The translations under genes and the position numbers were made by a program. The notes under the pieces were generated by a model. It was not told where the DNA came from and made no database searches. It saw only the letters and a list, made by a program, of their open reading frames with translations. Source: a virus. Taken from it: a stretch of DNA of 37,852 nucleotides. The stretch spans positions 1 through 37,852 of IMG/VR virus record IMGVR_UViG_3300021560_000036. One strand, 5' to 3'. This document shows positions 9,038-37,852 of this stretch, one piece after another (within the stretch, counting starts at the first letter, position 1; each line of letters opens with the position of its first letter).

Positions 9038-9061
9038 GGCGAAAAGACCTCCTGGGGAGAA

Positions 9062-9106: not shown

Positions 9107-9213
9107 AGTGGGTGGGGGGGTGCGTGTGGAGGCGGCAAAAGAGGTCTAATCCCAGGTCAGCGGCCTGTCAAGGGGGGAAAATGTTAGGGAGCAGTTGCCT
9201 GAGCAAGCGCTGA

Positions 9214-9248
9214 GGGGGGAAGGGGAAGGGGAAGGGGAAGGGGAAAGG
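9214..9248 (+). repeat. (GGGGAA)5 microsatellite; a canonical G-quadruplex motif in non-coding DNA
   Basis: GGGGGGAAGGGGAAGGGGAAGGGGAAGGGGAAAGG read directly. It abuts the AT-rich stretch at 9249-9270. Confidence 0.9.
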
Positions 9249-9351
9249 TATCTTTTATTTTAAAGCTTACGCATACTGTCGACCCCTTACTACCACCCTT
9301 ACTACCCTTACTCTTGACCAAACGCTAACACCACACTAACAACACCCTAAC
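9249..9351. repeat. Candidate replication origin: AT-rich stretch plus two sets of triple direct repeats
   Basis: The AT-rich stretch is tatcttttattttaaagctta. CCCTTACT occurs 3 times (9284, 9296, 9305). CTAAC occurs 3 times at an exact 11-bp spacing (9325, 9336, 9347). The region is non-coding and is C-rich on the + strand, unlike the rest of the genome. Confidence 0.45.
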
Positions 9352-9375
9352 ATTTGGAACTTATCCACAGGGTAG

Positions 9376-16977: not shown

Positions 16978-16983
16978 GGCGGG

Positions 16984-22327: not shown

Positions 22328-23326
22328 CTACGAGGCGATCTTGGTGAACTTGCCGGACAGAGAGACGTTGGAGAAGATGATGTTCCCGGCCCAGAGGAGC
22401 TTCGCGACCATGGCGTCCTGGTTGATGGCGGTCTGGAAGTCTTCGAGCGTGAAGTTCGCCTTGGGGGAGACGTAGAGGAACATGAAGTCCTCGTTGATGA
22501 AGTAGACGTTCCCGGTCGGCGTGCCACCGGCTGGGCCGACAAAGCCCGGCGCGGTGGAGATGTGGGAGTCAACGGTGAAGGGGACGCCATCGAAGAGGAG
22601 GTTCGTGAAGCCTGCCGCCGCGAGCTGTTCGTCCTGGCCTCCCGGTTGGGAGGGGAAGCGCTGGACGGAGGTGTTGAGGGTGTAGAAGAAGTTGTACGCG
22701 GACTGGGTGCCGACGATGATCGTCGGGTGACGGCCACCCTGCGTACAGTTTCCCATGAGGGCCTGGTAGGCGGTGAGTGAGGACGCAGCGGTGGCGTTGT
22801 CGATCTTGGACTTCCACCACGGGTAGGTGGTCCGGGAGAGACCGCCGTAGGTGCCGAGGATCGTGCCGTCGTCCACTGCGCCGATGAGGCCGTCAATGTG
22901 GAGCTGGTTGGTGACGCCGTCCGACCAGACACCGTTGCCAAGCTGGTCGGAGAGTTCCATCTCAGCCTGCGCGAAGTAGACGTTGAGGAAGTTGGCGATG
23001 GCGTCGGGAGCGTCGGTCTTGATGAGGGTGAGGCCGTCAACGGTGATCGGGACGTAGTACTGCCGCCACTGCCAGGCACCGTTCAAGATGGTGTCAGAGG
23101 GCGCGATGTTGAGGGTCTGGAAGCCGGAGTACGGGCCTCCAGCCGCCATCTTCGCGTACATGAGCGGCTGCTCGACCTGGTAACCACCCTGGACGATACG
23201 CCGGTTGGCGGAGTTCAGGCGGTGGAAGAAGAGGTTCGAGAGGTAGACGTTGTCGGCGATTTGCGGGACGATGTAACGCCGGGAGATTGACGTTACGACG
23301 TCGGTTCCGACAGGAGTGACGGCCAT
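22328..23326 (-). CDS. Major capsid protein (332 aa)
   Basis: The size, the position after the scaffold gene and the sequence character (YIVPQIADNVYLSNLFFHRLN..., ...LEDFQTAINQDAMVAKLLWAGNIIF) are typical of phage major capsid proteins. Confidence 0.75.
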   Translation of the reverse strand: MAVTPVGTDVVTSISRRYIVPQIADNVYLSNLFFHRLNSANRRIVQGGYQVEQPLMYAKMAAGGPYSGFQTLNIAPSDTILNGAWQWRQYYVPITVDGLTLIKTDAPDAIANFLNVYFAQAEMELSDQLGNGVWSDGVTNQLHIDGLIGAVDDGTILGTYGGLSRTTYPWWKSKIDNATAASSLTAYQALMGNCTQGGRHPTIIVGTQSAYNFFYTLNTSVQRFPSQPGGQDEQLAAAGFTNLLFDGVPFTVDSHISTAPGFVGPAGGTPTGNVYFINEDFMFLYVSPKANFTLEDFQTAINQDAMVAKLLWAGNIIFSNVSLSGKFTKIAS

Positions 23327-23332
23327 TTGGGG

Positions 23333-24274
23333 TTACCTTTCTCCGATTGCTTCGGCAAGTTCGGCGATCATCGCTTGGTTGCGCTCTTCACGCGTCATTG
23401 ACTCTGGCGGACGAGTGGTACGAGGAGCTGACTGACGACCGGAGATGGAGGCGAGCTTCTGCTCCTTACGGCGCTGGGCAGAGGCACGGGTCTTGTTATC
23501 AGCCTCGACGCCCTGGAGATAGGCCTCACGGAGCGTGGGGTTGGACCAAAAGGCAGCGTCGAGTGCGCCGATCACCGAGTCGTAGACAGACTTGCCTTGG
23601 TTACGGAGGGCGAGGCCAACACCGGTCTGTGCGGCGGAAAGGCGGAGGGATTCCATCTTGGAGTTGTCGAGGCGGTACTTGGACTGGTAGTCCTCGCAGG
23701 CCTTCTCCACGAAGGAGGCGGTCTCGACGTTCTCGCGACGGACAAGTTCGAGGCGCTGGGCCTCGACCATCTGGGAGAGCTGGGCGTAATTGTCCCAGAG
23801 GACGCGAATGTTGGGGTCGTCTAGGTCGAGATCGGGGGGTGGGGTCGGGGCCTCGGAAACGTCGGCGAGGGCTGGAGATGGAGAATTGGGAGGAAAGGTT
23901 GAGGCCTGCTGTCGAGCTTGTTCCAGCGCCTGTGAGGCGGAGCGTGTCGACTCGATAAGAGATCCGTCCAGGTATTCACGAAGACGGAGGAGATCGGCGA
24001 GTTCGGCGTGGGTGAAGGAAGTGCCGTTGATGTCAACGGTGGCTTCGGATGGTTCGGGGGAGGGGGAGGGGGAGGTGGAGGTGGAGGGGGAGGTGGAAGG
24101 CTCGTCGTCGGGTTCATCGTCTCCCCCTTCGTCCGGCTCGTCGTCGGGGAGTGGCTCGTCTTCGGGTTCGGAATCGGGAAGGGGTTCGGAATCGGGAGTG
24201 GTGGTCTCGGACTCGAACTGGGCGAAGAGGGCGCGGAGTTGGGCGTCTTCCTCGGGCGGGATGGTGGCGGGCAT
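23333..24274 (-). CDS. Scaffolding protein (313 aa)
   Basis: Acidic, helical and low in aromatics. It lies directly upstream of the capsid gene. The N-terminal acidic/Pro-Ser repeat region is encoded by G-tract repeats at 24056-24100. Confidence 0.6.
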   Translation of the reverse strand: MPATIPPEEDAQLRALFAQFESETTTPDSEPLPDSEPEDEPLPDDEPDEGGDDEPDDEPSTSPSTSTSPSPSPEPSEATVDINGTSFTHAELADLLRLREYLDGSLIESTRSASQALEQARQQASTFPPNSPSPALADVSEAPTPPPDLDLDDPNIRVLWDNYAQLSQMVEAQRLELVRRENVETASFVEKACEDYQSKYRLDNSKMESLRLSAAQTGVGLALRNQGKSVYDSVIGALDAAFWSNPTLREAYLQGVEADNKTRASAQRRKEQKLASISGRQSAPRTTRPPESMTREERNQAMIAELAEAIGER

Positions 24275-24699
24275 CAGGCACCGGCTTTCTGGGCGATCAT
24301 GCGACGGAGTTCATCGGGGTTGGGAGCGGGGGCGAGGGGCGTGACACCGTTCGGTCCGGGCGGACCGGCGAGCTGAGCACCGGGAGGAGGTCCGGCACCT
24401 GGCGGCAAGCCTCCAGGCGGTCCTCCGGGAAGGGGACCGGCACCGGCACCAGGGGGCGGCGGACCACCGGGGCCACCCGCTGCCGGAGGCAGACCGGCCC
24501 CAGGGGGTGCTGGGGGCTGCCCTCCAGGCCCACCAGGCGGCGACATTCCGCCCCCCGCCCCCTGACGCATCCGCCCGACGATGACCCCCTGGAGCGTGGT
24601 GAGGAAGGGGAGGTCGGCGTCGGGTGCAACCATGGCCTGTGAGATGTCCGAGACGATCTTGCCGAGCGCCTCGGTCATGGTGGAAGGGGGAGCAGCCAT
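24274..24699 (-). CDS. Gly/Pro-rich protein (141 aa)
   Basis: An ordered N-terminus (MTEALGKIVSDISQAMVAPDADLPFLTTLQGVIVGRM) and C-terminus flank a long GPPG-type tract. The stop overlaps the scaffold start. Confidence 0.5.
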   Translation of the reverse strand: MAAPPSTMTEALGKIVSDISQAMVAPDADLPFLTTLQGVIVGRMRQGAGGGMSPPGGPGGQPPAPPGAGLPPAAGGPGGPPPPGAGAGPLPGGPPGGLPPGAGPPPGAQLAGPPGPNGVTPLAPAPNPDELRRMIAQKAGA

Positions 24700-24714: not shown

Positions 24715-24843
24715 TTACTTGGAGTAAGGGGTGGCGGGCTTGTTGACTTCCTTCGAGGCAGGGTCGTTGCCAAAGCTGCCGGAAGTCTGGCCCTGCTTGA
24801 TGATCGGGGCCTTGGAGCCACGGTTGCCGGTGTTGTTTGCCAT
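24715..24843 (-). CDS. Small protein (42 aa)
   Basis: ATG at 24843 lies 11 nt after AAAGGAG. Translation is MANNTGNRGSKAPIIKQGQTSGSFGNDPASKEVNKPATPYSK. The upstream part of the 85-aa track ORF is G-tract repeat. Confidence 0.4.
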   Translation of the reverse strand: MANNTGNRGSKAPIIKQGQTSGSFGNDPASKEVNKPATPYSK

Positions 24844-24903
24844 CAGTGACGGACTCCTTTGCGTGGGATACGCCTGGAGGGCTTTGGTGGGTGGGAGATC
24901 ATA

Positions 24904-24951
24904 GGGAGTGGGTGGGAGTGGGTTGATGTGGTGGGAGTGGGTGGGAGTGGG
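24904..24951 (+). repeat. Two exact copies of GGGAGTGGGTGGGAGTGGG (24904-24922 and 24933-24951); each is a four-tract G-quadruplex motif
   Basis: Read directly in non-coding DNA. The 16-mer GGGAGTGGGTGGGAGT recurs at 35001-35016. Confidence 0.9.
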
Positions 24952-25096
24952 AGCGGGGACCGGGGGCCGCACGAACGCGCAGTGATCGGAAGGATTGAGA
25001 CCCCCGGCCCATCCGCTCTGTGGACTACTTCCGGCGACCGTGCCGCCCGTGCCGACGAGCCAAGGGGATCACCTCCTCTGCGGTCGAAATCAACGT

Positions 25097-25418: not shown

Positions 25419-25592
25419 TCATCGTCTCCCTCCACGGACTCGATTCAGGCGTGGGTTGCGCTTGCGGGCCGATTTGCCAGCACGACGGGTAGAGGCAGCG
25501 AGCATGGCACCGGCTTGATCCTTACTGACCCCTTCACGCTTCGCGATGTCAGACTGAACGGCCTTGAAACCGGGATGGGACTTGCGAGCCAT
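25419..25592 (-). CDS. Small highly basic protein (57 aa); not in the ORF track because it is under 60 aa
   Basis: My own translation is MARKSHPGFKAVQSDIAKREGVSKDQAGAMLAASTRRAGKSARKRNPRLNRVRGGRR. The ATG overlaps the portal stop (TAATG). Confidence 0.5.
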   Translation of the reverse strand: MARKSHPGFKAVQSDIAKREGVSKDQAGAMLAASTRRAGKSARKRNPRLNRVRGGRR

Positions 25593-27451
25593 TAGGTGTT
25601 CCTTCCTGCCGAGACACGTTTGCCCGGACCGCGTTGGGATTGTTGATGGGCGAGGGCTTGCTGCTGCTCTTTTTGTTCCATGCGCTGGTTAATGAGCTGT
25701 GCGCCGGGATAGTTATGCGTCTGGAGGACGGCGAGACGGTCGATTGCGCCCATCGCGAAGAGGGTGTCGGCCTCGGCGATGCGTGATTGGCGGGAGGTGG
25801 GGTTGTTCGCGCCCGCGTCGATGAAGATGGAGAAGCGGAAGGGGAGCGAACCCTCGTCGGAGGTGCCGTAGAAGTGGCGCGCAGAGAGCTGGAGGGAGGC
25901 CTGTTCGCCCTCAGGACCGACAATGGCGACGACGCGGGGGGTCGTGTAGTTCTCGGTGATGAGTTCGGCGATGAGTTCACCTGCGGTGCGGAGGCAGTCT
26001 TCGAGATTTCGCATGGCCTGGCGAACGCGGACGAAGCCGGACTCCTGGGAGGCGGCGACCGAAGCGGACGGGGTGCGGGCCGGAGGGGGTTGGCCCTTGG
26101 TGACCGAGGAGAGGCCGGAGATGTTCTCCATGCGCTGGATCCAGAACTGGATCAAGTCGCCGATGAACTGCGGCATGTTGGGAGGATTGAGCCAAGATGG
26201 TTGGTTGGGGGAGGCGTTTGGGCCACCCTTAAGGCGGAGACGCTGCCCGGGCCGGTTGATGATGGCGGTACGGGAGATGCCGGAGTCATCCGGCTCCATG
26301 AAGATCGGGTTGCCGATAAGTTCGGCGTTGGACTGCATCGCACCGAGCAGGCGGTTGATGGCGATCTGGGCGGGTGCGAGGTGGGAAACGAGGGAGACGC
26401 CCCAGAACTCACCGACGTCATCGAAGCAGTAGCGGGTGTAGGGGTGACGTCCCGTGCCCCAGAGGTCCTTGGCGTGCTCGTCCATGAGGATGACACCGGA
26501 GCAGACGACGACGACCCGCCATTCGTCGTAGACGACGGGGTCGGGATAGGCGTAGTTGGGGTTGGGGGGTTCCTTGACGGGGGACTCGTCTAGGGGTTCG
26601 ACTCGGTTTTCTCGGATCCAGAATTCGTGGACGATGACGCCGTCTGAGACTGCCGCGCGAGTGCGGCGGCCCTGACCAGGGCGGCCAAAAGTTCCAGGCG
26701 CTGATGCTCCGAAATTGGACTTTGGATAGGAACCGGACTGGGGGAGCTGTCCTGGGTTGGTCTTGGGGTATTGGTCCGCGTCGTAGAGCGACGGTGGCGA
26801 GTCGAAGTCCGTGCCGGGGCCTTGGGCGAGGGAAGCTTCATTAGCAATGATCTCATCATACGCCAGGGGGAAACGGCGTTGGACTTCTTCGAAGGAGAGT
26901 CGTTGGACTTCGACAAAGTACTGCGCGTCTTTCATGGATGAGGAGTTGGGATCGGGATAGAAAGACCAGGGGGAGATGCGGCGAAAGACGGCGTCTCCGA
27001 GACCGTCATGGAGGCCTGAGTCCCAGACGGTCTTGAGGATGCCGCAGCCGTAGAGGGCGGCATCCCAGCAGGAGAGGTAGATCTCGTCATCGAGGTTGTT
27101 GTTCAGCCAGTTGGACTGGAGAATGTTTTCGAGGTCGTTGGAGAGTTTGTTGAGCCAGTCTGCGTAGAGGGTGTGGGGATCGGCTGCGGCGGAGCAGGAG
27201 AAGATGACGGCTTGGTCGGTCATCCAGGCGATGAGAGAGGAGATGATGGGGAAGATTTCCGAGGAGGTGGGGGACGGCATCCAGTTGGCGGTGCGGGCCT
27301 CCGACCACATCTTGTTGTTGACAAGAAGGTAGTTACGCCGCCACTCCTCATAGTGGCGGGTCTTCCGCATGCGGGCGTTGGAATAGAGGGTTTCGAGCTT
27401 GGAGACAAGTTCGAGATCGGAGAGTGAGGCGGTCTCGACGGTGGTTGCCAT
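25592..27451 (-). CDS. Portal protein (619 aa)
   Basis: The size, the position just after the terminase genes and the N-terminal pattern (LETLYSNARMRKTRHYEEWRRNYLLVNNKMW) are typical of portal proteins. Confidence 0.8.
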   Translation of the reverse strand: MATTVETASLSDLELVSKLETLYSNARMRKTRHYEEWRRNYLLVNNKMWSEARTANWMPSPTSSEIFPIISSLIAWMTDQAVIFSCSAAADPHTLYADWLNKLSNDLENILQSNWLNNNLDDEIYLSCWDAALYGCGILKTVWDSGLHDGLGDAVFRRISPWSFYPDPNSSSMKDAQYFVEVQRLSFEEVQRRFPLAYDEIIANEASLAQGPGTDFDSPPSLYDADQYPKTNPGQLPQSGSYPKSNFGASAPGTFGRPGQGRRTRAAVSDGVIVHEFWIRENRVEPLDESPVKEPPNPNYAYPDPVVYDEWRVVVVCSGVILMDEHAKDLWGTGRHPYTRYCFDDVGEFWGVSLVSHLAPAQIAINRLLGAMQSNAELIGNPIFMEPDDSGISRTAIINRPGQRLRLKGGPNASPNQPSWLNPPNMPQFIGDLIQFWIQRMENISGLSSVTKGQPPPARTPSASVAASQESGFVRVRQAMRNLEDCLRTAGELIAELITENYTTPRVVAIVGPEGEQASLQLSARHFYGTSDEGSLPFRFSIFIDAGANNPTSRQSRIAEADTLFAMGAIDRLAVLQTHNYPGAQLINQRMEQKEQQQALAHQQSQRGPGKRVSAGRNT

Positions 27452-27879: not shown

Positions 27880-29568
27880 TCAAGCGAATTGGGATGGGAA
27901 TGGGGAGGGGGACGGGGATGGGTAGGGGGATTGGGGCCAAGCGTCGTAGGGAGGGGTACCGCCGATGTCGGTGCCGGGGAATGGACGATCCTCCATCATC
28001 TGTACAGGGCCTTCGGTAAGAGTGCAGATGACCGAGATGGTGAGTCCCATTACGGCGTCGTCGTACTTCCACTGTCCCCGTGCATTACCCATTTCACCGT
28101 TCGCGAGCACGACGTAGTTCCGCATCTGGTGATAGGTCTCGGTGTCGTGGATGATGAGAGAGTTGTCGTAGAGGAGACGGACGACGTTGCCAATAGCCCA
28201 GTGCTTGCGTTGGTAGTTGGTCGACCAGCCGTAGATGTTCATGGCGATGGCTGAGGTCCCACCACGGTCGGCACGCCGGAACTTCCAGAGCTTCGGGTAG
28301 TTCATCTTGATGAGAGCGGCGATGGTGGCGTAACCGGGTCCTTCCATCTCGGGGGCAAGTTCGGCGATGTTGTAGTAGTAGCCGATCTTGGCCATCTCGT
28401 CGGCAAAGGTGACGGGGTCAATCTTTCCGTGCCAGACGGCGACCTGTTCGAAGGTGTTGCGGTTGAGGACTTGAATGCAGGCGTTGTCGCCGAGGGTGGT
28501 ACGGGAGGGGTCACCGGCAACCATGTAGGTGCCGTATTGGCGGTCGGAGGATGGGTAGCGGAAGACGGTGAGATGGCCAAGGGGGTCTTCGTAGAACTGG
28601 AAGCGACCGTTGATCTCTAGGACTTCCCCCTTGATACCATCCATCGGCCGATAGGCTTTCTCAAGCTTGTCGAGGGGGAAGACGTTGCGTCCAGTAGTAA
28701 GGAAAGCCTCCTCAGCAGTCGCAGGGTACTCCTGACAGAAATACGCTTCGTCACCATGACAGAGAGATGGTATGGCATAACGTCGCCATTCGATGTGCTC
28801 CAGATCGGCCCCAAGCCGGACAAGGCGTCGTTCAGCTTGGTCAAGGTCAGGCCGCTTAGCATTAATGGTGGTGAGTGGAAGCGCATATTCGTAGTGATGA
28901 AGCCAAGAAAAGAACAGCGGAACGTAATCGTTAATACCGGCGACAGCATCTTCCCACGCGCCATGGAACCAATTTCCCACGCCATTAGCCGTTGATTCAA
29001 GGATGACAATGGTGCCTCGTTTGTTGGGGATGGTCTGTCGGAGACCGGTCATGAGGGTTTCGGGGTCGTCCCAGAAGGCGCACTCGGTAGCGTGGAGGGC
29101 TTGGAGGGTGCGGCCACGGCCGGATTTGACGTTCTTGGCGGTGGCGATACGGACGGACGATCCATGTTCCCATTGCATCCGGCGCTGGGTGGTGGAGCGA
29201 AGACGGTAGAAGTCCTTGTACGGCCAGTTCTCCCAGAACATGACGTTCTTCTCGAAGGCGGACTGGGAGGTGTCGGTCTCGTGGGCGATGACGAGGGCAT
29301 TGGTACCGGGGAAGACGAACCCCCAGTTGAACAGGACCGCCTCGGTGATAGTGGTGATGCCGAGTTGTCGGGCCTTTAAGACGGCGATTCGGACGGGTTG
29401 CTGGAGGATGTTGTGTTGCCGCTCGACCTCTTTGATGAGGATGCGTTGTGCCCAGGCGAAGTCGTAGTCCCGGCCGTAGGGGTTGGAGAGATTGATGTTC
29501 TCGATGGTGGCATCTTTAGAGCTGATGACGAGCTTTTCAATAAGGGGTGTGAGAGAGAGGCGGCGCAT
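27880..29568 (-). CDS. terL: Terminase large subunit (562 aa)
   Basis: Deviant Walker A VLKARQLGITT (compare T4 gp17 SRQLGKT). A Walker B-like LVIAHE and a nuclease-half pattern ILESTANG are present. It lies upstream of the portal gene. Confidence 0.85.
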   Translation of the reverse strand: MRRLSLTPLIEKLVISSKDATIENINLSNPYGRDYDFAWAQRILIKEVERQHNILQQPVRIAVLKARQLGITTITEAVLFNWGFVFPGTNALVIAHETDTSQSAFEKNVMFWENWPYKDFYRLRSTTQRRMQWEHGSSVRIATAKNVKSGRGRTLQALHATECAFWDDPETLMTGLRQTIPNKRGTIVILESTANGVGNWFHGAWEDAVAGINDYVPLFFSWLHHYEYALPLTTINAKRPDLDQAERRLVRLGADLEHIEWRRYAIPSLCHGDEAYFCQEYPATAEEAFLTTGRNVFPLDKLEKAYRPMDGIKGEVLEINGRFQFYEDPLGHLTVFRYPSSDRQYGTYMVAGDPSRTTLGDNACIQVLNRNTFEQVAVWHGKIDPVTFADEMAKIGYYYNIAELAPEMEGPGYATIAALIKMNYPKLWKFRRADRGGTSAIAMNIYGWSTNYQRKHWAIGNVVRLLYDNSLIIHDTETYHQMRNYVVLANGEMGNARGQWKYDDAVMGLTISVICTLTEGPVQMMEDRPFPGTDIGGTPPYDAWPQSPYPSPSPSPFPSQFA

Positions 29569-29968
29569 CGGGGGTGTCCTCGGTGATGAGCTGGATGGGG
29601 GAGTCGGGGGTGGAGTCGTCGCCCTGGGTGTCGGAGAGTTCGATCAGTTCCCGGAACTCCGAGGTGAGTTCCTGCATCTCCTTCGGGGACTTGGAGCCGA
29701 GAAGGCCGCGCATGATCGAGATCATCATGCGGATGAGCTGCATCTTGGCGGCTGGGGTTCCGGTCTCCAGCATCTCGATACCCTTCTCATAGGCCCGCCA
29801 GGCGAGGCGGTTGAGGGCACCGACCGCGTCGTTCTGGTCGATGTCGACGTGGAGGGTGTTGCGAAGGGCGTAGAGGTCTTCGATCTCGACGTCGAGCACG
29901 TCCGCGACCGTGGGGACGTCGATGCCCCGGACGAGCATCCGGGCGGCGATGTCACTGAGGGTTGCCAT
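29537..29968 (-). CDS. Putative terminase small subunit (143 aa)
   Basis: Internal ATG at 29968. The N-terminus is HTH-like (LSDIAARMLVRGIDVPTVADVLDV). It lies immediately upstream of the large subunit and overlaps it. Confidence 0.5.
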   Translation of the reverse strand: MATLSDIAARMLVRGIDVPTVADVLDVEIEDLYALRNTLHVDIDQNDAVGALNRLAWRAYEKGIEMLETGTPAAKMQLIRMMISIMRGLLGSKSPKEMQELTSEFRELIELSDTQGDDSTPDSPIQLITEDTPDAPPLSHTPY

Positions 29969-30164
29969 GGAGGGAGGGTGGGGGTTGGGAAGGGGATTGG
30001 GAAGGGGATTGGGATGGGGATTGGGGTTGGCCGTCGTAGGCCCGGCGCTCGACCGAGAAGGTGAGGTCGACGCCATAGGCATCAGCGAGGGCAATAGCCG
30101 GGGTGCGGTCCTCGTAGGGGATGATGAAGGAGGCCTGAAGATCCCCGTTCGGTAAGAACTTCAT
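29952..30164 (-). CDS. Small protein (70 aa) or the C-terminal domain of the long frame-A ORF
   Basis: MKFLPNGDLQASFIIPYEDRTPAIALADAYGVDLTFSVERRAYDG is followed by a PQSPSQSPSQ tail encoded by the G-tract repeat at 29969-30030. Confidence 0.4.
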   Translation of the reverse strand: MKFLPNGDLQASFIIPYEDRTPAIALADAYGVDLTFSVERRAYDGQPQSPSQSPSQSPSQPPPSLHGNPQ

Positions 30165-30238
30165 GTCCCGGAGGTGGGCGTGGAAGGAGGTTGAGGCGAA
30201 GTGACCCTGCTTTCGGACCGGGGCGGAGTTGATCCGGC

Positions 30239-30646
30239 CTAACCCTCTTGTTGGTTCGGCAAGGTCGACTCGTGGTCCGAGAAGCCGGAGGGATTCGATT
30301 CCCTTTCGTCTAATGCGTGGAGCTGGCGGGTTCGCTCGCTGTCCTCGTACTCCTCGGTCGTTGTCGCCAGGCGGGTCTGGTAGAAGAGGATCCGGCGATC
30401 CAGCTCCTCCTGCTCGCGTCGGAGGGTCTCCTCCATGGCGAGCGGCATCATCGTCGGGTCCTGCCAGGCCGGGGAGATTGGGGAGGTTGGGGAGCCGGTG
30501 CGGGCGTCTGCGGGGCTTCCCGGCTGCGGGAAGGCCCGAGAGCTTGCGCGGGGGTCTGACGGGTCCAGGGCCTCCAGGTCCTCCGGGTACTCCAGTCTGA
30601 GGCTGCGGAGCACCAACTTCTCCAGAAACTCCGTCCGCACGATCAC
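30239..30646 (-). CDS. Coiled-coil protein (about 135 aa) in the +1 frame relative to the leader ORF
   Basis: GTG at 30646 follows GGAGGGGGG. The sequence is protein-like (VIVRTEFLEKLVLRSLRLEYPEDLEAL...MEETLRREQEELDRRILFYQTRLATTTEEYEDSERTRQLHALDE). Confidence 0.4.
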   Translation of the reverse strand: MIVRTEFLEKLVLRSLRLEYPEDLEALDPSDPRASSRAFPQPGSPADARTGSPTSPISPAWQDPTMMPLAMEETLRREQEELDRRILFYQTRLATTTEEYEDSERTRQLHALDERESNPSGFSDHESTLPNQQEG

Positions 30647-30647
30647 G

Positions 30648-30842
30648 CCCCCCTCCGATTCCCCCAATCCCCCGCTCGATCTCGGCCAACTGCCGCTCGA
30701 TTTCACGCTCCTCCCACTCGCTCGCCCATCCTGCCTCCCCATTCTCCATCTCACCGCTATCCACGTCCCCATCCCAGCCACTACCACTGCCACCACCACT
30801 GCCAATATCACTACCACTATCCATGTCGAAGTCGGCATCCAT
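30648..30842 (-). CDS. Acidic leader ORF segment (first 65 codons). The same frame stays open down to 29952
   Basis: ATG at 30842 lies 4 nt after GGAGG. Translation begins MDADFDMDSGSDIGSGGGSGSGWDGDVDSGEMENGEAGWASEWEEREIERQLAEIERG. Downstream this frame turns into Pro/Gly/Arg low-complexity sequence. Confidence 0.4.
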
Positions 30843-30920
30843 CTTCCCTCCGTACAAATTGCACGGTCGATTCGGTCACTTGCCGTTTATTTGCCGCTCA
30901 TTTCAAACATTTCGCCCCGC

Positions 30921-31911: not shown

Positions 31912-32006
31912 GGACGGGTGGAAGGGATGGGGAAAGCAGGATCAAGTAAGCGCCGGAGTCGGTGAGTCGGTGAGTTGTGGAACGGGAGAACGGAAGGAGT
32001 TGGGGA

Positions 32007-32334: not shown

Positions 32335-32406
32335 GATCCGTTCGTCTAGTGGTGAGGACGGCAGATTTTCAATCTGCAAACATGGGTTCGACTCCCATAC
32401 GGATCA
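32335..32406 (+). tRNA. tRNA-Glu(UUC): tRNA-Glu, anticodon UUC (72 nt, no encoded CCA)
   Basis: Cloverleaf folded by hand. The acceptor stem is GATCCGT/ACGGATC. The D arm is GTCT-AGTGGTGA-GGAC. The anticodon arm is GCAGA-TTTTCAA-TCTGC. The variable loop is AAAC. The T arm is ATGGG-TTCGACT-CCCAT. The discriminator is A. Confidence 0.88.
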
Positions 32407-32422
32407 CTGAGTTGGTACAGTC

Positions 32423-32515: not shown

Positions 32516-32959
32516 ATGGCGAAGTACTCGACCAGAGATGGACGGGTGATCGTGGAGACGACGGACGAAGAGGATGTCGTCATCATGCTGACCGAGTTCA
32601 TCGTGGATATGGACGATCCCGCTACCTATGCGAGAGCCCAGATGCTGAAGATGGGGACGGGGTTGGCGAACATCTTCAGTGTTCTGGAGATGTCCCTCTG
32701 CCAGGAGTACGGGGAGGGAGCGCACAACGCGCTGAAGGCCGTGCTGATGAAGCGGCAGTCGGTGTGTGAGAGGGGAAGCCAGATGTTGGGCGTTCCCGAG
32801 GACGATGTGGAGTTCGTACGGGAGACGGCGAACTCCGTGGCCGAGATGCGTGTCCATGGGGATGCGCTGAAGGGGAAGCAGGTGAGTCAAGCGGAACGTG
32901 AGATCGAGAAGAAGGTGAACGATCTCGATTTCGGTAGGGACCTCCCCGGTTATTTGTGA
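32516..32959 (+). CDS. Hypothetical acidic early protein (147 aa)
   Basis: GGAAGGAG lies 7 nt upstream of the ATG. The sequence is protein-like. Confidence 0.65.
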   Translation: MAKYSTRDGRVIVETTDEEDVVIMLTEFIVDMDDPATYARAQMLKMGTGLANIFSVLEMSLCQEYGEGAHNALKAVLMKRQSVCERGSQMLGVPEDDVEFVRETANSVAEMRVHGDALKGKQVSQAEREIEKKVNDLDFGRDLPGYL

Positions 32960-33105
32960 TTGGGGCGGCACATCGGCCGCATCCATGCGTGAGTGTGGGT
33001 GCGGCCTCTTGTGCTGGGTGGTCCAGCACGCGGCACGGAGGGATCCGTGTTGTGGGTAATGCGGCGTACTCTCCGTGCCATCCAAACGGAAGAGGGAAAC
33101 AGGAG

Positions 33106-34662
33106 ATGCCAAAAGTTCAGTTGCAGTACAGCGAAGAAGAGCGGACACTCCAGCAGATCCGTGAATTGTTGGCGGCGGCGAGTGGAAACTTGAAGCAGGA
33201 CGACGACGTTATCTTCGAGGGCCGGAAGTATGTATTGCCGGAGCGAGAAGAGAGCAAGCGGACTGCCGGTATCCATTTGATCGAGATGGCCGACGAAGAA
33301 GAGGAGCGGCAGCGATTCTCACGGGAGTACAAGTACCGTCCATGGGATGGAGCTGTGGCGACTCAGCGGGTGTTGGTGAAGGCATACGGCCACATGCACC
33401 AGCGGAACAGCCTGTTTCAGATGGCGGAGACGCGAGAAGTTCAGGTTGGGCCGGACGAGTTGATCAGCGTGCCGTGGGGCGAGTTTGACGTTCCAGGGCT
33501 GGATGGCGTGGTGTTCGTGTCGATGGCGGCGAGCGGGGACAATGGACCCGTGTACCTACTGTCAGCAACGGGACCACGCCGTTTCCGAGACGAGATCAAC
33601 GGTGTTTTCAACTTGGTGCAGGAAGAACTTGAAGAGAGTTCGATCTACCGTGGCAAGGCGTTCAACGGTGCCGAGAACCCAGACTTCTTGGATCTAGGGA
33701 AGTTCGATCCCTCGAAGGTGGTGTACTCGGAGGAAGTGTTGACCGAGTTGGACGCCAATGTCTGGTGCTTGATCCGATACCCGGAGCAGAACCGGGAGCT
33801 GGGTTTGCCGTTGAAGAGGGCCGTGGTGTTTGAGGGTCCGTACGGGACTGGGAAGACACTCGGCGCAAAGTTGACCGCGAAGGTTGCGGTGGACAACGGC
33901 TGGACGTTCATTTTCGTGAGACCAGGAATTGACGATCTCCGGGTGGCATTTCAGACGGCGAAGTTGTATGCGCCGTGTGTGGTGCATGTCGAGGATGTCG
34001 AGACACTTGGCGGATATGGTGGCAGTAGGGACCATATGAGCCGGGTGCTGGACATGTTCGACGGGATCGACACGAAGGACTCGGATGTCATCTGCGTGGC
34101 GACGACAAACCACAAGGAGGAGATCCACGCCGGGATGTTGAGGCCGGGAAGGATCGACGGTGTGATCCATATCGGAGCGCTGGACGCTGCGGGGATACGG
34201 AGGCTTGTTGAAGTCTCAGTGTTGCCGGGGCAACTGGAGGAAGAGATGGATTGGGCTGCCATTGCGGTTGCGATGGACGGCTACATGCCAGCTTTCGCGA
34301 AGGAGGCGATCAACCGGGCGCAGCGGTACATGCTCAGAAGGAACAAGGGCAAGATTGGACCGCTAGCGACGAGTGATTTCGTCCACGCCGCGAGGGGGCT
34401 GAGAACTCAGTTCGAGTTGCAGCAGAGTGCGAAGGACAAGCCAGAGGACAAGGGCTTGGACGGGTATGTGCGGGAGATGCTTGATGAGATCGTCACGGCC
34501 GCAAGTGATGGTATCAGGGAGGAGCTACCGGACATGGACAGTGCTGCGAGCGAGATTGTTGACCAGGTCCAGGGCAACACCCAGAGCGATATGAGGGAGT
34601 TGCTGAACGAGACGTCGGTGTATGACCAGAACGGAGAGTACTCCGGGAACTTGTCGGTCTGA
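33106..34662 (+). CDS. Classical-clade AAA+ ATPase (FtsH/Cdc48-like ATPase module, 518 aa) with unknown N- and C-terminal domains
   Basis: Walker A is VVFEGPYGTGKTLGAKL. The Walker B region is APCVVHVEDVETL (compare FtsH APCIIFIDEIDAV). Sensor 1 is ICVATTNH. The second region of homology is MLRPGRIDGVIHIG. Confidence 0.85.
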   Translation: MPKVQLQYSEEERTLQQIRELLAAASGNLKQDDDVIFEGRKYVLPEREESKRTAGIHLIEMADEEEERQRFSREYKYRPWDGAVATQRVLVKAYGHMHQRNSLFQMAETREVQVGPDELISVPWGEFDVPGLDGVVFVSMAASGDNGPVYLLSATGPRRFRDEINGVFNLVQEELEESSIYRGKAFNGAENPDFLDLGKFDPSKVVYSEEVLTELDANVWCLIRYPEQNRELGLPLKRAVVFEGPYGTGKTLGAKLTAKVAVDNGWTFIFVRPGIDDLRVAFQTAKLYAPCVVHVEDVETLGGYGGSRDHMSRVLDMFDGIDTKDSDVICVATTNHKEEIHAGMLRPGRIDGVIHIGALDAAGIRRLVEVSVLPGQLEEEMDWAAIAVAMDGYMPAFAKEAINRAQRYMLRRNKGKIGPLATSDFVHAARGLRTQFELQQSAKDKPEDKGLDGYVREMLDEIVTAASDGIREELPDMDSAASEIVDQVQGNTQSDMRELLNETSVYDQNGEYSGNLSV

Positions 34663-34719: not shown

Positions 34720-34992
34720 ATGGATGGGATGGGAGTGAGTGGGATGGGTGAGTATGAGGATTACCCGGTGAGGGAACTGATCGCCGGAGCCAACGAAGCA
34801 GTGATGAAGGCCGCGCAGGAGGGGATTGAGGCGCATGTGTACTTCAAGGCAACCTGCCCGAAGTGTGGGGAACGGTGTGTGTTCAGCGTCGCGGACACGG
34901 TGTTCGAGCAGATGGAGTGCAGCGCGTGCGGATGGGAGTTCCCGTTTGTAGAGGGGAACTACATGCTGGTGTACGGCGGAGAACTGCCGTGA
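34720..34992 (+). CDS. Zinc-ribbon protein (90 aa or less; start uncertain, alternative ATG at 34744)
   Basis: CPKCGERC...CSACG are two CxxC pairs. The N-terminus is G-tract repeat. Confidence 0.55.
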   Translation: MDGMGVSGMGEYEDYPVRELIAGANEAVMKAAQEGIEAHVYFKATCPKCGERCVFSVADTVFEQMECSACGWEFPFVEGNYMLVYGGELP

Positions 34993-35954
34993 GTGGGGTT
35001 GGGAGTGGGTGGGAGTCGGGAGTAAGTGTCAGGCCCGAGGACGTCCCCAAGCTGAGGGAGTTGTTGGTTGGGGATTGGAGTGAGGGTGGGGTATTGGCCG
35101 AGATCGCCCCGATCTTGAATGTGAGTGGGGACGTGAATGAGTACTTCGCCGATGAGGAAAGGTTCTGGGCCGAGAAGGCGGACCTATGGTTTGTCGGTGA
35201 GGAGATGTGCGCGTTACTGGAGCACGCGAGGACAGAACTCCCCCCGACGACGTTGACAAGTGGGTTGGTGACCCATGATGGGAGTTACCGGAGTGCGGGG
35301 CTGGTGGTGTTCGCCGACCCGATTTTCGGGATGAGTGCGAAGCCTGATGAGCCGCCGATTCCGGTTGGAGCGATGACCTGGCACCCTGCCGAGTATTCCG
35401 GGTGGAATGCGGGGAGGGGGAGGATGGGGCTGAGTATTTTGCTGTACTTCGTTGAGCCGGGGGAGAAGCGGTTATTGCCGCTCGGTCGGGTGAGTTGGCT
35501 GGAGGGCGAGGACACCGATGCGCTATTAGGCGGGTTGAGTGAGTTGCAGGAAGCATCGATGGCCGAGGATCGAAGGACACTGGCCGCGATGCTGTTATTG
35601 GCGAGTCAGCCCGGTGTGGCGGAAGTGGGGGAGAAGCTGCCTCCGAGACAACAGAGGAGAGAGGCAGAGAGGAAGGGGAGGAAACTCAGCCCGGTGAGGG
35701 TGATCCGGCTGAGAGCTGCCGTGGAAAGGGAGAGGAGTGGGAGAGGGGATGGGAGTGGGAGTGGGGATGGAGATGGAGAAGGAGGGAGGAAGAGGGAGTA
35801 CCACCAGAGATGGGTGGTGACGGGGCATTGGCGGCAACAGGCGTACGGGAAGGGCTGGACACTACGACGTCCGAGATGGATCGCACCGTATGTGAAGGGC
35901 CCGAAGGAGGCGCCGATGGACACGAGGCCCACGGTAAAGGCATGGGTGAAATAG
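34989..35954 (+). CDS. Hypothetical protein (about 321 aa) with a basic C-terminal WVVTGHWRQQAYGKGW..RRPRWIAPYVKGP motif
   Basis: GTG overlaps the upstream stop (GTGA). The body of the protein looks protein-like. An internal GDGSGSGDGDGEGG repeat is present. Confidence 0.55.
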   Translation: MSGVGSGWESGVSVRPEDVPKLRELLVGDWSEGGVLAEIAPILNVSGDVNEYFADEERFWAEKADLWFVGEEMCALLEHARTELPPTTLTSGLVTHDGSYRSAGLVVFADPIFGMSAKPDEPPIPVGAMTWHPAEYSGWNAGRGRMGLSILLYFVEPGEKRLLPLGRVSWLEGEDTDALLGGLSELQEASMAEDRRTLAAMLLLASQPGVAEVGEKLPPRQQRREAERKGRKLSPVRVIRLRAAVERERSGRGDGSGSGDGDGEGGRKREYHQRWVVTGHWRQQAYGKGWTLRRPRWIAPYVKGPKEAPMDTRPTVKAWVK

Positions 35955-35964: not shown

Positions 35965-36156
35965 ATGACAAGAGTGACGATGGTGGTTTGCGACCTGTGC
36001 AAGACGTCGTTCAGAGAGTCAAACATGACGGTGACAATGACGATCCGTCGCGGGTTCAGCGGTGATCCACAGGAGATGGACCTCTGTGAGGACTGTTTCC
36101 AGGGGTTGCAGGAATGGATTGGGAAGAGGAAGGAGAAGGGGATGGGGAAGGGATGA
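35965..36156 (+). CDS. Small zinc-binding protein (63 aa)
   Basis: AGGAGA lies 6 nt upstream of the ATG. CDLC...CEDC pairs are present. The C-terminal KEKGMGKG tail is encoded by the 26-nt repeat. Confidence 0.6.
   Translation: MTRVTMVVCDLCKTSFRESNMTVTMTIRRGFSGDPQEMDLCEDCFQGLQEWIGKRKEKGMGKG
36128..36153 (+). repeat. 26-nt exact repeat GGAAGGAGAAGGGGATGGGGAAGGGA (second copy at 37692-37717)
   Basis: Compared base by base. Both copies encode a KEKGMGKG C-terminal tail. Confidence 0.9.
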
Positions 36157-36785
36157 AGAGGAGGAGGGCTGGAGTGGCAAGACGTCGTTCTCCGATGAGG
36201 GTGAGGGAGGCTGGAGGCGAGACTGAGTGGTGGAGAAACCCGCCCTACACGTTAATGCTGATGGCCGAGTTGTGGGCAATGGGTGGGGTGTATCGGTCAA
36301 GGAACTGCACCAGGGAGATCATCGAAGCCGCAAACACAAGGGCAGACGGGTTCGGGATCAAGCCTATCTCGAAGAGTACGCACAGCGGGACGATGACGTA
36401 CTTGCAGAGGCAGGAGCTGGTGGAGTGCAAGTTCGAGCGGGTCAGCGAGAGGACGAACAACAAGCGCATCGTTGAGACCAAGCTCACGGCGAAGGCAAAG
36501 GAGAAGTTCGGGGCGGCCATCCAGGAATACCTGAACCAAGAGGGGATGCCGATTGGTGAGACGGAGATCGGGATGGGGATCGGGATGGGAGTTGGGAAAA
36601 TTGGGGTAGTTGGAATCGGAGCTGCCCTTGTCGCTGTGAACGGGAAAGGAGAAGGAGAAGGGGAAGGGGAAGTGGAGGTGATGGAGGAGCTGAGGTCGGA
36701 GAACGTCATCCTCCGTCGAACACTGGTGAAGGTGGTTGGGAAGCTGGATCCGGCTCAGATCATTGAACTGATTATCGAAAGGTAA
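36153..36785 (+). CDS. Winged-helix (MarR/PadR-like) DNA-binding protein with a Gly-repeat/hydrophobic segment and a C-terminal coiled coil
   Basis: The ATG overlaps the upstream stop (ATGA). TMTYLQRQELVECKFERVSERTNNKRIVETKLTAKAKEKF fits the wHTH recognition-helix plus wing pattern. Confidence 0.45.
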   Translation: MKRRRAGVARRRSPMRVREAGGETEWWRNPPYTLMLMAELWAMGGVYRSRNCTREIIEAANTRADGFGIKPISKSTHSGTMTYLQRQELVECKFERVSERTNNKRIVETKLTAKAKEKFGAAIQEYLNQEGMPIGETEIGMGIGMGVGKIGVVGIGAALVAVNGKGEGEGEGEVEVMEELRSENVILRRTLVKVVGKLDPAQIIELIIER

Positions 36786-37276: not shown

Positions 37277-37617
37277 GTGACTTGAGTGACTTGAGTGACC
37301 CGAATGAATGGGGCCTCGATTCCCTCCCCCCACGCCGGAAGGTAGGCGATGAAATCAGGCGGAAGATAGAGGCACTGAAGAAGAGTCCCGGCTGGTGGAT
37401 TCTGTATGGCCAGGAAATGCACCCGAGTAACGCTGCCAAGTTGAGGAAGCGTTTTCCGGGGATTGAAGTTGCGACCAGGAATCAGACGTTCGACGGAGAG
37501 AGGTTCGTGTGTGATGTCTACGTCAGGTGGCCAAGAGGAGAGGGAGAGGGAGAGGGAGAGGCGGACGGAGGAGGAGAGGGACCTCTACCGGGCGAAGGGA
37601 TTGCTGAGACACGCTGA
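37273..37617 (+). CDS. Hypothetical protein (114 aa)
   Basis: ATGA overlap with the upstream stop. The core is protein-like (GWWILYGQEMHPSNAAKLRKRFPGIEVATRNQTFDGERFVCDVYVRW). The C-terminal GEGEGEGE tail overlaps the next ORF. Confidence 0.5.
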   Translation: MSDLSDLSDPNEWGLDSLPPRRKVGDEIRRKIEALKKSPGWWILYGQEMHPSNAAKLRKRFPGIEVATRNQTFDGERFVCDVYVRWPRGEGEGEGEADGGGEGPLPGEGIAETR

Positions 37618-37744
37618 GACGTTGGTGTCGGCTGCGTTACAGGACATTGACGTGGTGACGGAATTGGTGAGAAAGTGGGAGTTGAGGAAGGGGAAGGAGA
37701 AGGGGATGGGGAAGGGAATGGGGAGTGCAAGCGGAAAGGTATAG
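37514..37744 (+). CDS. Coiled-coil protein (76 aa)
   Basis: MSTSGGQEERERERERRTEEERDLYRAKGLLRHAETLVSAALQDIDVVTELVRKWEL... ends in the KEKGMGKGMG tail. Confidence 0.45.
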   Translation: MSTSGGQEERERERERRTEEERDLYRAKGLLRHAETLVSAALQDIDVVTELVRKWELRKGKEKGMGKGMGSASGKV

Positions 37745-37852
37745 GAACCTAAGACAATGGGCAAGGATCAAGGAGCTGTTGACGCGTGAGGATGTGGGGG
37801 AGATGGAGAAGATGGAGGAGGTGGAAGAAAGAGGAGAGGGAACGGGAAAGGA
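37725..37852 (+). CDS. 5' part of the junction-spanning small ORF (continues at 2-160)
   Basis: See feature 2-160. The reading frame is continuous only if the two window ends are joined through the 123-bp repeat. Confidence 0.35.
   Translation, partial: MQAERYRNLRQWARIKELLTREDVGEMEKMEEVEERGEGTGK
37730..37852. repeat. Terminal direct repeat, right copy
   Basis: Identical to 1-123. Confidence 0.95.

Follow-up and report, generated by a model that had tools for sequence, protein, structure and literature searches.

Coding microsatellites and low-complexity regions arise by replication slippage, and functional oligomers such as Chi sites and the FtsK KOPS (GGGNAGGG) are strand-skewed. In bacteria, the G-rich strand is the leading strand, and the classic signature of cytosine deamination is an excess of T over A on the G-rich strand. 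Strand-specific codon usage caused by replication skew has been described in Borrelia burgdorferi and Chlamydia muridarum (PMC2089121), and the skew pattern of unidirectional and rolling-circle replication has also been reported (PMC3269016). Putative G-quadruplex (G4) sequences of the form (G3+N1-7)x4 are catalogued in viral and bacterial genomes (e.g. PMC6572409, PMC5117502).

Here, we describe a window of 37,852 nt, the whole stretch of DNA analysed, which is the complete, circularly assembled genome (approximately 37.7 kb) of a tailed phage with a P22/SU10-type portal. The window ends are identical over 123 nt, which together with the 18 nt by which the contig (37,870 nt) exceeds the window amount to 141 nt; this looks like an assembler k-mer overlap. 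Megablast over 12.8 kb detected no DNA similarity to known phages, the portal gave only tblastn matches of about 21% identity or less, and no relatives of the AAA ATPase were found in viral contigs. In the literature collection searched, no paper was found on this phage group or on G4 surveys of tailed phages. The G-tract repeats found in this genome look like a side effect of a G-rich strand and slippage, not dedicated G-quadruplex signals, and the orientation-independent skew of the phage clade is a more notable feature than the repeats themselves.

Strand asymmetry of the genome

Across positions 1 to 37,852, the + strand contains 38.3% G and 21.8% C, a skew of 0.27. The cumulative GC skew rises monotonically around the circular map without a turn, and 36 of the 37 1-kb windows showed a positive skew, the sole negative one corresponding to a single outlier gene. 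Of the 54 genes, 53 agree in the + strand sign of their skew at third codon positions, in either gene direction, and the non-coding DNA shares this sign (skew 0.21). The earlier note had read the strand lock of the repeats as a sign that a DNA structure is maintained, a conclusion that a genome-wide lock does not support. The single compositional exception is a - strand gene (30239-30838) with the opposite third-position sign, which carries repeats that are C-rich on the + strand.

The bias peaks at silent four-fold sites, where its coding sense flips with gene orientation: C reaches 0.63 and G 0.12 in minus-strand genes, while G reaches 0.51 and C 0.19 in plus-strand genes. On the G-rich strand, A is at least as frequent as T at these sites. 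Amino-acid usage is also shifted, with minus-strand genes richer in Pro, Ser, Thr and Gln, and plus-strand genes richer in Gly, Glu, Arg and Val. That the second module is oriented along the + strand is secure, given the match of its AAA ATPase to phrog_10440 (E 2e-72) and a tRNA-Glu on the + strand. The same sign at four-fold sites, independent of gene orientation, was seen in two relatives.

A transcription-coupled origin of the skew was ruled out because its sign remains constant whatever the gene orientation, and translational codon selection was ruled out because the two gene sets favour opposite synonymous codons. The monotonic rise leaves no polarity switch of the kind produced by bidirectional theta replication with an origin and a terminus. 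No Rep/HUH protein, primase or polymerase was identified in the proteins scanned against Pfam and PHROGs, with at most one of the two libraries covering several small ORFs and a few structural proteins; many small ORFs gave no hits in these scans, and no replication origin was identified in the genome. A recombination set is encoded by the phage itself, comprising a Sak4-like protein, a Cas4/RecE-like exonuclease and an ERCC4 nuclease. Polarising substitutions at four-fold sites of the portal, major head protein and TerL genes left only 25 usable sites owing to saturation, and 7 of the 11 polarised changes were A->G on the + strand, too few to use. Separately, a programmed frameshift at the G7 run 7413-7419 in the split helicase was rejected, as the overlap between its two ORFs does not include this run.

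From composition only, we infer an asymmetric replication mode of the rolling-circle or unidirectional kind, in which one strand would be leading or displaced over the entire circular genome and which would impose a strand-specific mutation pressure. Since no polymerase, primase or Rep was found in the proteins scanned, the phage DNA would presumably be copied by the host replisome. Counting against this explanation, about 80% of the genes would be transcribed head-on to the forks if the G-rich strand is the leading one, as in bacteria, which is unusual, and the excess or parity of A over T at four-fold sites differs from the T excess of cytosine deamination.

Tandem arrays and the peptides they encode

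Tandem Repeats Finder identified 40 merged arrays, where dinucleotide shuffles gave 2.0±1.1 and codon-order shuffles 10.0±1.9. The density is 10.6 arrays per 10 kb, against 0-5.5 in relatives; it exceeds the expectation from codon-order shuffles 4 times and the density in relatives 2-10 times. Periods were divisible by 3 in 45 of the 54 repeat rows, and short head-to-tail units in frame occur above chance, as in slippage-type coding repeats. Most of the non-triplet periods were observed in gaps or at gene junctions (8431-8464, 9325-9352, 16941-16985 and 34989-35028), and three inside ORFs (6284-6304, 24904-24951 and 31956-31975); the coding arrays are overwhelmingly multiples of 3 and do not resemble a phase-variable contingency locus. 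By strand composition, 24 arrays are G-rich on the + strand (G at least 0.40, C at most 0.15) and 4 are C-rich (975-1005, 9284-9306, 9325-9352 and 30777-30819). The proposal that the repeats are always G-rich on the + strand held for canonical G4 motifs but was not absolute for tandem arrays. The repeat units are heterogeneous and share no common word. Under a maximal-order Markov model, no 8-mer stands out, and the search for a Chi/KOPS-like skewed oligomer gave top z values of 3.8-7.0 for words unrelated to the arrays. Among strand-skewed k-mers none was dominant, the top z being about 5.

All arrays described below are given on the + strand. The TerL-tail array (27886-27936) has 8 tracts of at least three G, and its - strand encodes the C-terminal tail QSPYPSPSPSPFPSQ of TerL. 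The G runs of this array are intact and the loops vary. TerL is 562 aa long, against 543-550 aa in those four relatives whose TerL is complete. In an alignment with five relatives, nearly the whole tail falls in gaps, and the C-terminal TerL tails of the relatives are also variable and unconserved. A 70-aa protein (29952-30164, - strand) ends in a (QSPS)n tail encoded by 3.8 copies of GGGGATTGGGAA (29972-30030), an array that overlaps the start of the next gene (29537-29968); the tail aligned to gaps in three relatives (L004, L005 and L006). A 313-aa protein, probably the scaffold, whose gene adjoins the major head protein gene, carries STSPSTSTSPSPSP in its acidic N-terminal region, encoded by seven copies of GGGGGA (24056-24097); this array was partly gapped in five relatives. 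At 24904-24966, 4.9 copies of GGGAGTGGGT with two G4 motifs encode the N-terminal peptide PPVPAPTPTHSHHINPLPPTP of an 85-aa protein (24715-24972, - strand), which falls wholly or mostly in gaps in 4 of 5 relatives, the fifth (L005) having an unrelated 15-residue stretch.

A G4 motif with eight copies of AGTCGG (2227-2348) encodes DPDSDSDPDSNSDSDYPDP...PDPNPIPSP in the N-terminal region of a 121-aa protein (1987-2352, - strand), and two G4 motifs at 2553-2631, including 3.9 copies of CGGGGTCAA (100% perfect), encode DPVDPVDPVDPEPTPDPPTDPQPPDP in the N-terminal region of a 112-aa protein. An 81-aa protein (4081-4326, - strand) has 6.9 copies of GGTGGGAGG (4113-4174) close to its C-terminus. A linker (TLQPTVQPTLQ) of a 252-aa protein is encoded by 3.8 copies of GTTGGAGGGTGG and an 11-nt repeat (6219-6304), and the C-terminal AAQAAQASTTPTPSPSYSQDTLTQ tail of a 288-aa protein by a G-tract motif with 15-nt and 9-nt arrays (14770-14851). 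The perfect (GGGGAA)x5 at 9214-9245 lies in a 338-nt non-coding gap and is one of the few non-coding G4 motifs.

In the plus-strand module, a G4 motif at 34726-34748 encodes GMGVSGMG at the N-terminus of a 90-aa zinc-ribbon-like protein. A G-rich array with a 17-nt period (34989-35028; peptide GVGSGWESG) lies at the junction of the genes at 34720-34992 and 34989/34863-35954, and six copies of GGGAGAGGGAGT (35728-35799) encode a GRGDGSGSGDGDGEGG linker in a phrog_15934 protein. At 36116-36152, 3.1 copies of GGATGGGGAAGG are read in two frames: one gives a 63-aa protein its C-terminal tail (KGMGKG), and the other gives an overlapping 223-aa protein its N-terminus (EEEGEGDGEG). The latter plus-strand protein also contains GMGIGMGVGKIG and GKGEGEGEGE segments encoded by two arrays at 36566-36672. 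A 77-aa protein carries two arrays: 7.5 copies of GGAGAG (37537-37581), which encode EERERERERR near the N-terminus and are G-rich without making up a canonical G4 motif, and 3.2 copies of GGAAGGGGATGG (37686-37724) encoding the C-terminal tail KGKEKGMGKGMG. Finally, a plus-strand 103-aa protein carries DEDGVDGVDGDGGVDGVDDVDEVV at its N-terminus, encoded by an array of G, T and A with 27-nt and 9-nt periods and 0% C (466-535), which shows that the plus-strand module wraps around the window ends.

Runs of at least three P-x units numbered 12 in minus-strand genes and 0 in plus-strand genes, whereas G-x runs of the same kind numbered 5 and 8, respectively (Fisher p=0.0016). This bears out the idea in the earlier note that the strand of the repeats is set by the DNA and not by the peptide, and replication slippage, one of the candidates it listed, is the best-supported mechanism. 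We consider it fairly probable that strand mutation bias, slippage and selective filtering together explain the G-tract repeats at gene ends. Short proto-repeats would be common on a G-rich background, and slippage would expand them into tandem units of 6-18 nt. Selection would then remove any array that disrupts a reading frame or a folded domain, so that the survivors would be in frame and located at tolerant N- and C-termini, in linkers and in a few spacers; this filter would produce the gene-boundary pattern. Minus-strand genes read the same G-rich DNA as P-x tails, and plus-strand genes read it as G-x or G-E tails. The array density is high, and an extra driver, such as G4-promoted slippage or selection, may therefore contribute.

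The in-frame periods and the location of the repeats at termini and linkers would also be expected under protein-level selection for flexible disordered tails and linkers, with the strand bias setting the cheapest residues (Pro/Ser on the minus strand and Gly/Glu on the plus strand). Several proteins contain long low-complexity segments, and the variable TerL tails of the relatives are compatible with such selection. However, the orthologues lack the tails, which are therefore dispensable, and Pro-rich and Gly-rich tails differ physically, yet the choice between them tracks the strand only. Repeats are also present in non-coding DNA (the array at 9214-9245) and in two overlapping frames (that at 36116-36152). 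For these reasons, we regard this explanation as unlikely.

G-quadruplex motifs, gene ends and relatives

Canonical G4 motifs, defined as at least four tracts of at least three G with loops of 1-7 nt, numbered 33 on the + strand and 0 on the - strand, and G4Hunter at a threshold of 2.0 gave 51 and 3 regions, respectively. The G-tract clusters reported in the earlier note are real: on the + strand, all 16 intervals are rich in G (49-76%) and poor in C (0-14%), with 3-12 tracts of at least three G in each and 8 in the focal site (27891-27936). Their reported clustering at gene ends also survives control for composition. On a gene map built from our own ORF calls and codon scores, checked by homology and distinct from a curated annotation, 18 of the 33 motifs are no more than 75 nt from a gene boundary, compared with 5.5±1.9 (maximum 11) in 300 within-gene codon-order shuffles, a 3.3-fold enrichment. 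A binomial test against the positional background supported this enrichment (p=0.001), and the interior motifs were at expectation (15 against 10.7±2.8 in codon-order shuffles).

The strand split itself follows from base composition, which alone predicts one of this kind: composition-preserving shuffles gave 14-19 motifs on the G strand and 0.06-0.23 on the C strand. The total of 33 exceeds these shuffles, and the excess comes from low-complexity repeats that are in frame and encode P-x in minus-strand genes or G-x in those on the plus strand. With protein sequence and codon usage held fixed, no G4 excess was found; synonymous-codon shuffling within genes gave 28.7±2.8 motifs (p about 0.08), and no selection for G4 is thus seen at silent sites. 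Long G runs are depleted, with 121 runs of at least 5 against 156 expected and 27 runs of at least 6 against 55. On our gene map 31 of the 33 motifs are coding, or 32 once the ORF at 6822-7532 is counted. A canonical motif is present in 10 of the 24 G-rich arrays, more than half of which lack four G3 tracts. The ViennaRNA G-quadruplex model assigned -14 to -54 kcal/mol to nine + strand segments and about 0 to their complements; on this prediction, the repeat sequences are probably capable of G4 folding, which would be a by-product.

The window was compared with seven relatives whose portals share 65-78% identity with its own. Over 13-16 kb each, the relatives have a GC content of 52-57%, a skew magnitude of about 0.04-0.15, 0-2 motifs and 0-3.3 arrays per 10 kb, while the equivalent 15.2 kb of the window has 62% GC, a skew of 0.25, 8 motifs and 7.9 arrays per 10 kb. 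The presence or absence of arrays differs between the window and these relatives, and gene order is collinear across the array sites. Each G-rich array that could be aligned to orthologues fell wholly or almost wholly in gaps in every one of these. G4 conservation was examined at four G-tract sites, and the orthologous positions were wholly or largely gapped. As judged from these alignments, the alignable repeats are lineage-specific insertions.

These results bear directly on the possibility that one-strand G-quadruplexes are selected at gene boundaries, where they would pause or regulate replication, transcription or packaging. The enrichment near gene ends, the excess over composition shuffles, the stable folds predicted for the + strand but not for its complement, and the retention of G runs with variable loops in the TerL array are all consistent with it. 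Against it, the signal disappears when protein sequence and codon usage are held constant, the aligned relatives lack the arrays or are largely gapped where these would lie, nearly all motifs are coding and not in spacers, more than half of the G-rich arrays lack the required tracts, and long G runs are depleted. Furthermore, in about 80% of genes the motifs are on the template strand, and in the others they are on the coding strand and in the mRNA; a single transcriptional or translational role is therefore not coherent. The maintained structure advocated in the earlier note is not supported, given the genome-wide lock, the synonymous shuffle, the gapped orthologues, the few motifs in relatives, the small share of G-rich arrays with a canonical motif and the heterogeneous units, and we judge this explanation quite improbable; nothing in the sequence analysis indicates that G4 folding is a selected function.

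Recombination hot spots at module boundaries, which would promote mosaic exchange between phages, had also been suggested, and no specific evidence for them was found. DNA homology to relatives does end at gene ends, where the arrays are located (TerL alignments, for example, stop at about 28000), and the phage encodes the recombination proteins described above. Nonetheless, the heterogeneous units offer no shared sequence to pair between loci or genomes, the relatives lack the arrays and thus provide no partner sequence, gene order is conserved across the array sites, and homology decay at protein termini is generic. This role appears very unlikely.

An assembly or sequencing artefact, such as mis-assembly of G-rich low-complexity DNA, can practically be dismissed: the lineage was sampled once, with the six array-bearing proteins found in the 90% protein clusters all being singletons among 15 billion sequences, but the sole second copy, a separately assembled 8,580-bp Logan contig (L002, SRR6831574), is 100% identical across five arrays, the reading frames are open through the arrays, and the genome-wide skew is shared, more weakly, by relatives from other samples. 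Flank-anchored patterns searched for copy-number variants gave 0 matches in metagenome and viral contigs.

Under the combination of strand mutation bias, slippage and selective filtering, G-quadruplex folding would be a by-product that may raise the slippage rate. A more far-reaching version, which we consider rather doubtful, is that one strand is single-stranded or leading genome-wide in this phage clade, head-on to most genes, and that G4-promoted slippage in the most skewed lineage creates Pro- and Gly-rich termini de novo. If true, this would be a natural case of DNA-structure-driven mutation reshaping a viral proteome.

Comparison with known systems

Several consequences extend beyond this genome. 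A G4 distribution restricted to one strand can come entirely from base composition, and the right null model for G4 is a synonymous-codon shuffle and not a comparison of strand counts. A dsDNA phage with 63% C or 51% G at silent sites according to gene strand alone is a useful specimen, in which the mutation bias is strong enough to alter amino-acid usage and the chemistry of protein tails. If confirmed, the clade would provide a compact system for studying the imprint of replication mode on codon usage and proteome composition, and the skew could be used to infer the replication mechanisms of uncultured phages.

Like Chi sites and KOPS, the phage repeats are G-rich, strand-polarised and co-oriented over the whole replicon. 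Unlike them, no phage word rises above Markov expectation and the array units are unrelated. The phage satisfies the G4 definition of the catalogues at 33 sites, with an in-silico predicted fold; in contrast to the sequences catalogued there, its motifs are unconserved, within the range predicted from protein and codon bias, and mostly coding.

The monotonic skew over the whole replicon matches the unidirectional or rolling-circle pattern (PMC3269016). The circular assembly and the P22-type portal fit concatemer-based headful packaging. No Rep/HUH initiator was found in the phage proteins scanned and no origin was identified; lambda-like late sigma replication does not require Rep.

As in Borrelia and Chlamydia, G exceeds C on one replication strand, most strongly at third codon positions, and the preferred synonymous codons are opposite between genes of the two strands, which also differ in the amino acids they use. 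The phage differs in that its circular map has no polarity switch and hence no two replichores, that its silent sites combine A at or above T with G above C instead of T above A, and that most genes of its 37.7-kb replicon lie on the C-rich strand. The arrays resemble slippage microsatellites, with which they share units of 6-18 nt, imperfect copies, in-gene periods divisible by 3, a location at protein termini and linkers, and lineage-specific presence. They depart from these in a density that is unusually high for a phage and in their polarity, 24 G-rich arrays against 4 C-rich.

Distribution of G-tract motifs and repeat arrays

The intervals that an earlier note had described as G-tract repeats at gene junctions were each found to be G-rich and C-poor, with 3–12 tracts of three or more Gs. 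Across the window, the canonical putative G-quadruplex (G4) motif, (G3+N1-7)x4, was identified 33 times on the plus strand and never on the minus strand, and G4Hunter (≥2.0) returned 51 versus 3 regions. According to our own gene map, which sets the gene boundaries and coding status used here, 31 of the 33 motifs are coding; as the note had also described for the repeats, translation gives P-x-P-x peptides where the gene is on the minus strand and G-x-G-x peptides where it is on the plus strand. Eighteen motifs are found no more than 75 nt from a gene end, against 5.5±1.9 (maximum 11) in codon-order shuffles that keep the composition of each gene, while the 15 interior motifs are as expected from such shuffles (10.7±2.8). 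Additionally, Tandem Repeats Finder yielded 40 merged arrays, compared with 2.0±1.1 in dinucleotide and 10.0±1.9 in codon-order shuffles. The G-tract pattern is genuine and is concentrated at gene ends beyond what chance would give.

The claim that the repeats are always G-rich on the plus strand holds for the motifs but not for the arrays, of which 24 are G-rich and 4 C-rich on this strand. One exception, absent from the earlier list, is the C-rich array at 975-1005 (CTTCTTCCTACT, 2.6 copies), which encodes the poly-Glu C-terminal tail of the minus-strand gene 982-1254. Repeat periods are divisible by 3 in 45 of 54 repeat rows; non-triplet periods are mostly located in gaps or at gene junctions, with three inside ORFs (6284-6304, 24904-24951 and 31956-31975). 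The units vary between sites (GGGATG, GGGGAA, GGGGGA, GGGAGT, CGGGGTCAA, AGTCGG and others), and no shared k-mer was prominent against a Markov model.

Runs of (P-x)≥3 were observed 12 times in minus-strand and 0 times in plus-strand genes, and runs of (G-x)≥3 5 and 8 times, respectively (Fisher p=0.0016). Amino acid usage follows the same division, with proline at 7.4% versus 3.9% and glycine at 7.0% versus 11.0%. Since the peptide type tracks the strand and the periods are mostly in frame, the repeat pattern is set by the DNA and not by the peptide, as previously argued. Located between the genes for the portal and the scaffold-like protein is a 141-aa protein (24274-24699, minus strand) in which a core of roughly 75 aa is nearly all Pro, Gly and Ala (P 24%, G 22%); in contrast to the one-sided tails elsewhere, this core draws on C-rich as well as G-rich codons.

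Strand composition and the G-quadruplex reading

The strand lock is a feature of the window as a whole, not of the repeats in particular. On the plus strand, G makes up 38.3% of the bases and C 21.8%. Of the 37 1-kb windows, 36 have a positive GC skew, and the cumulative curve rises without any turn. At four-fold sites, read in the coding sense, the composition is 63% C and 12% G in minus-strand genes and 51% G and 19% C in plus-strand genes. In plus-strand terms, the third-position skew is positive in 53 of 54 genes, and the skew of non-coding DNA is 0.21. Even mononucleotide, dinucleotide and local shuffles contain 14–19 motifs on the plus strand and 0.06–0.23 on the minus strand, so the 33:0 split follows from composition. 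G runs showed no enrichment relative to shuffles, and long runs were depleted.

The sole gene with the opposite third-position sign (30239-30838, minus strand) also explains the sole negative 1-kb window. It encodes an N-terminal transmembrane helix, carries repeats that are C-rich on the plus strand (30656-30702 and 30777-30819), and may have been acquired or inverted recently. In addition, a 227-aa protein of the related phage contig L004 is matched by a second frame on the minus strand, 29952-30857 (E 5e-22).

The earlier note took the strand lock as a sign that the DNA or a DNA structure is maintained, with G4 among the candidates. In-silico prediction assigns G4 folds to the G-rich segments as single strands, and they can probably fold in this way. 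Under synonymous permutation within genes, which holds proteins and codon usage fixed, 28.7±2.8 motifs were retained against the 33 observed (p about 0.08), whereas codon-order permutation lowered the count to 16.2±3.3; the motif excess therefore stems from the order of amino acids, namely peptide repeats of low complexity, and not from choices at silent sites. A canonical motif is present in 10 of the 24 G-rich arrays, and 12 of the 33 motifs are located in arrays. Nothing indicates that G4 folding is what is maintained, and a selected structure behind the strand lock is unsupported. Recombination hot spots at module boundaries, another of the proposals, find no support in the data either.

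Genome content and comparison with relatives

The window is a tailed phage. Its minus strand encodes a P22/SU10-type portal (25592-27451; Pfam E 3e-31), a large terminase (TerL, 27880-29568) and a major head protein (22328-23326; phrog_9953, E 2e-52), and an AAA ATPase is located on the plus strand (32956-34662; phrog_10440, E 2e-72). An amidase endolysin was also identified, together with a recombination set comprising an ERCC4+HhH nuclease (1258-1965), a Sak4-like protein (3299-4081) and a Cas4/RecE-like exonuclease (4319-5356). An XPD/DinG-like helicase (phrog_2488; 6822-8425, minus strand) is split between two ORFs that overlap and use different frames, a DEAD/ResIII half (7436-8425) and a Helicase_C_2 half (6822-7532), which are likewise called as two genes in the related contigs L018 and L019. 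Both ARAGORN and Rfam detected a plus-strand tRNA-Glu (anticodon TTC, 32335-32407); Glu makes up 10% of residues in plus-strand genes. Genes occupy the minus strand from about 982 to 30838 and the plus strand from about 30992 to the window end, wrapping round to 774. The first and last 123 nt (1-123 and 37730-37852) are identical, and the source contig (37,870 nt) is 18 nt longer than the window, giving a 141-nt overlap. This looks like the assembler k-mer overlap that circular assemblies typically leave, as opposed to a terminal repeat of biological origin, and the unique genome is thus about 37.7 kb. A megablast search with 12.8 kb found no DNA-level similarity to known phages.

Between two minus-strand genes, a 338-nt non-coding gap (9038-9375) displays an origin- or promoter-like layout. 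It contains AACCACAACATGT twice (9062 and 9094), a perfect (GGGGAA)x5 (9216-9245), an AT-rich stretch, and then C/A-rich direct repeats, namely CCCTTACTACC x2 (9284-9306) and CTAACA-type units (9325-9352), with a local switch from G-rich to C-rich composition.

Hundreds of portal homologues occur in metagenomes, many on contigs of about 36–38 kb. Seven relatives (portal identity 65–78%) were compared across the corresponding structural region, some 15 kb long, where their GC content is 52–57% versus 62% in the window. The skew sign is the same in 6 of the 7, at a magnitude of 0.09–0.15 versus 0.25; motifs number 0–2 versus 8, and arrays 0–3.3 versus 7.9 per 10 kb. The C-terminus of TerL reads AWPA or AFPA in L003 and L004, the closest relatives, and AWPQSPYPSPSPSPFPSQFA in the window, so the array encoding this tail (27886-27936) is an insertion of about 15 codons in a terminus that varies in any case. 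Furthermore, the tail of a 70-aa protein (29952-30164) lies opposite gaps in all three relatives aligned, the array of the 313-aa scaffold-like protein (24056-24097) is partly gapped in five, and the N-terminal array of an 85-aa protein (24715-24972) is gapped in 4 of 5. In two relatives, for which the oppositely oriented module was covered as well, four-fold G is 0.47 and 0.40 in plus-strand genes, and four-fold C is 0.43 and 0.35 in minus-strand genes; a skew independent of gene orientation is therefore a trait of the clade, with the window as its extreme. Relatives at about 42–58% identity show little of it. No closer relatives or population variants were present in the metagenome and viral collections searched, and polarisation of substitutions was defeated by saturation.

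Three portal relatives at 42–43% identity (L020, L021 and L023; contigs of about 18–36 kb) were binned in Acidimicrobiales or Acidimicrobiaceae MAGs, and AAA-ATPase homologues bear Acidimicrobiia names. Phage-contig binning being unreliable, this is a weak hint that the wider family infects actinobacteria.

Replication and the origin of the repeats

Strand-specific mutational pressure tied to replication fits the skew best. Among the proteins scanned with Pfam or PHROGs, none was recognised as a DNA polymerase, primase or Rep initiator, and replication is presumably carried out by the host replisome with the phage ERCC4/HhH, Sak4-like and Cas4/RecE-like proteins. Because no Rep, polymerase or origin was found, we infer the replication mode, as we do the direction of fork movement. 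In rolling-circle replication, the whole strand is leading and the cumulative skew rises continuously (review, PMC3269016). Poor fits to the mechanism are the silent sites of the G-rich strand, with A≥T and not T>A, and the head-on orientation that most genes would have if the G-rich strand is leading. Transcription-coupled bias and translational selection are excluded, as the sign of the skew is independent of gene direction.

On this skewed background, slippage would expand G-rich proto-repeats, and purifying selection would then spare arrays only where they keep the reading frame and lie in tolerant termini, linkers or spacers. Slippage was a candidate in the earlier note and stands as the likely mechanism, given the in-frame periods, the array excess over both shuffles and the gaps in relatives; copy number would presumably still be changing. 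We regard the repeats as a by-product, specific to this lineage, of an unusually strong strand bias that does not depend on gene orientation. Such a bias in a phage clade is a more interesting feature than the repeats, and it is a known kind of phenomenon; in Chlamydia and Borrelia, replication skew is so strong that codon usage differs between the strands (PMC2089121).
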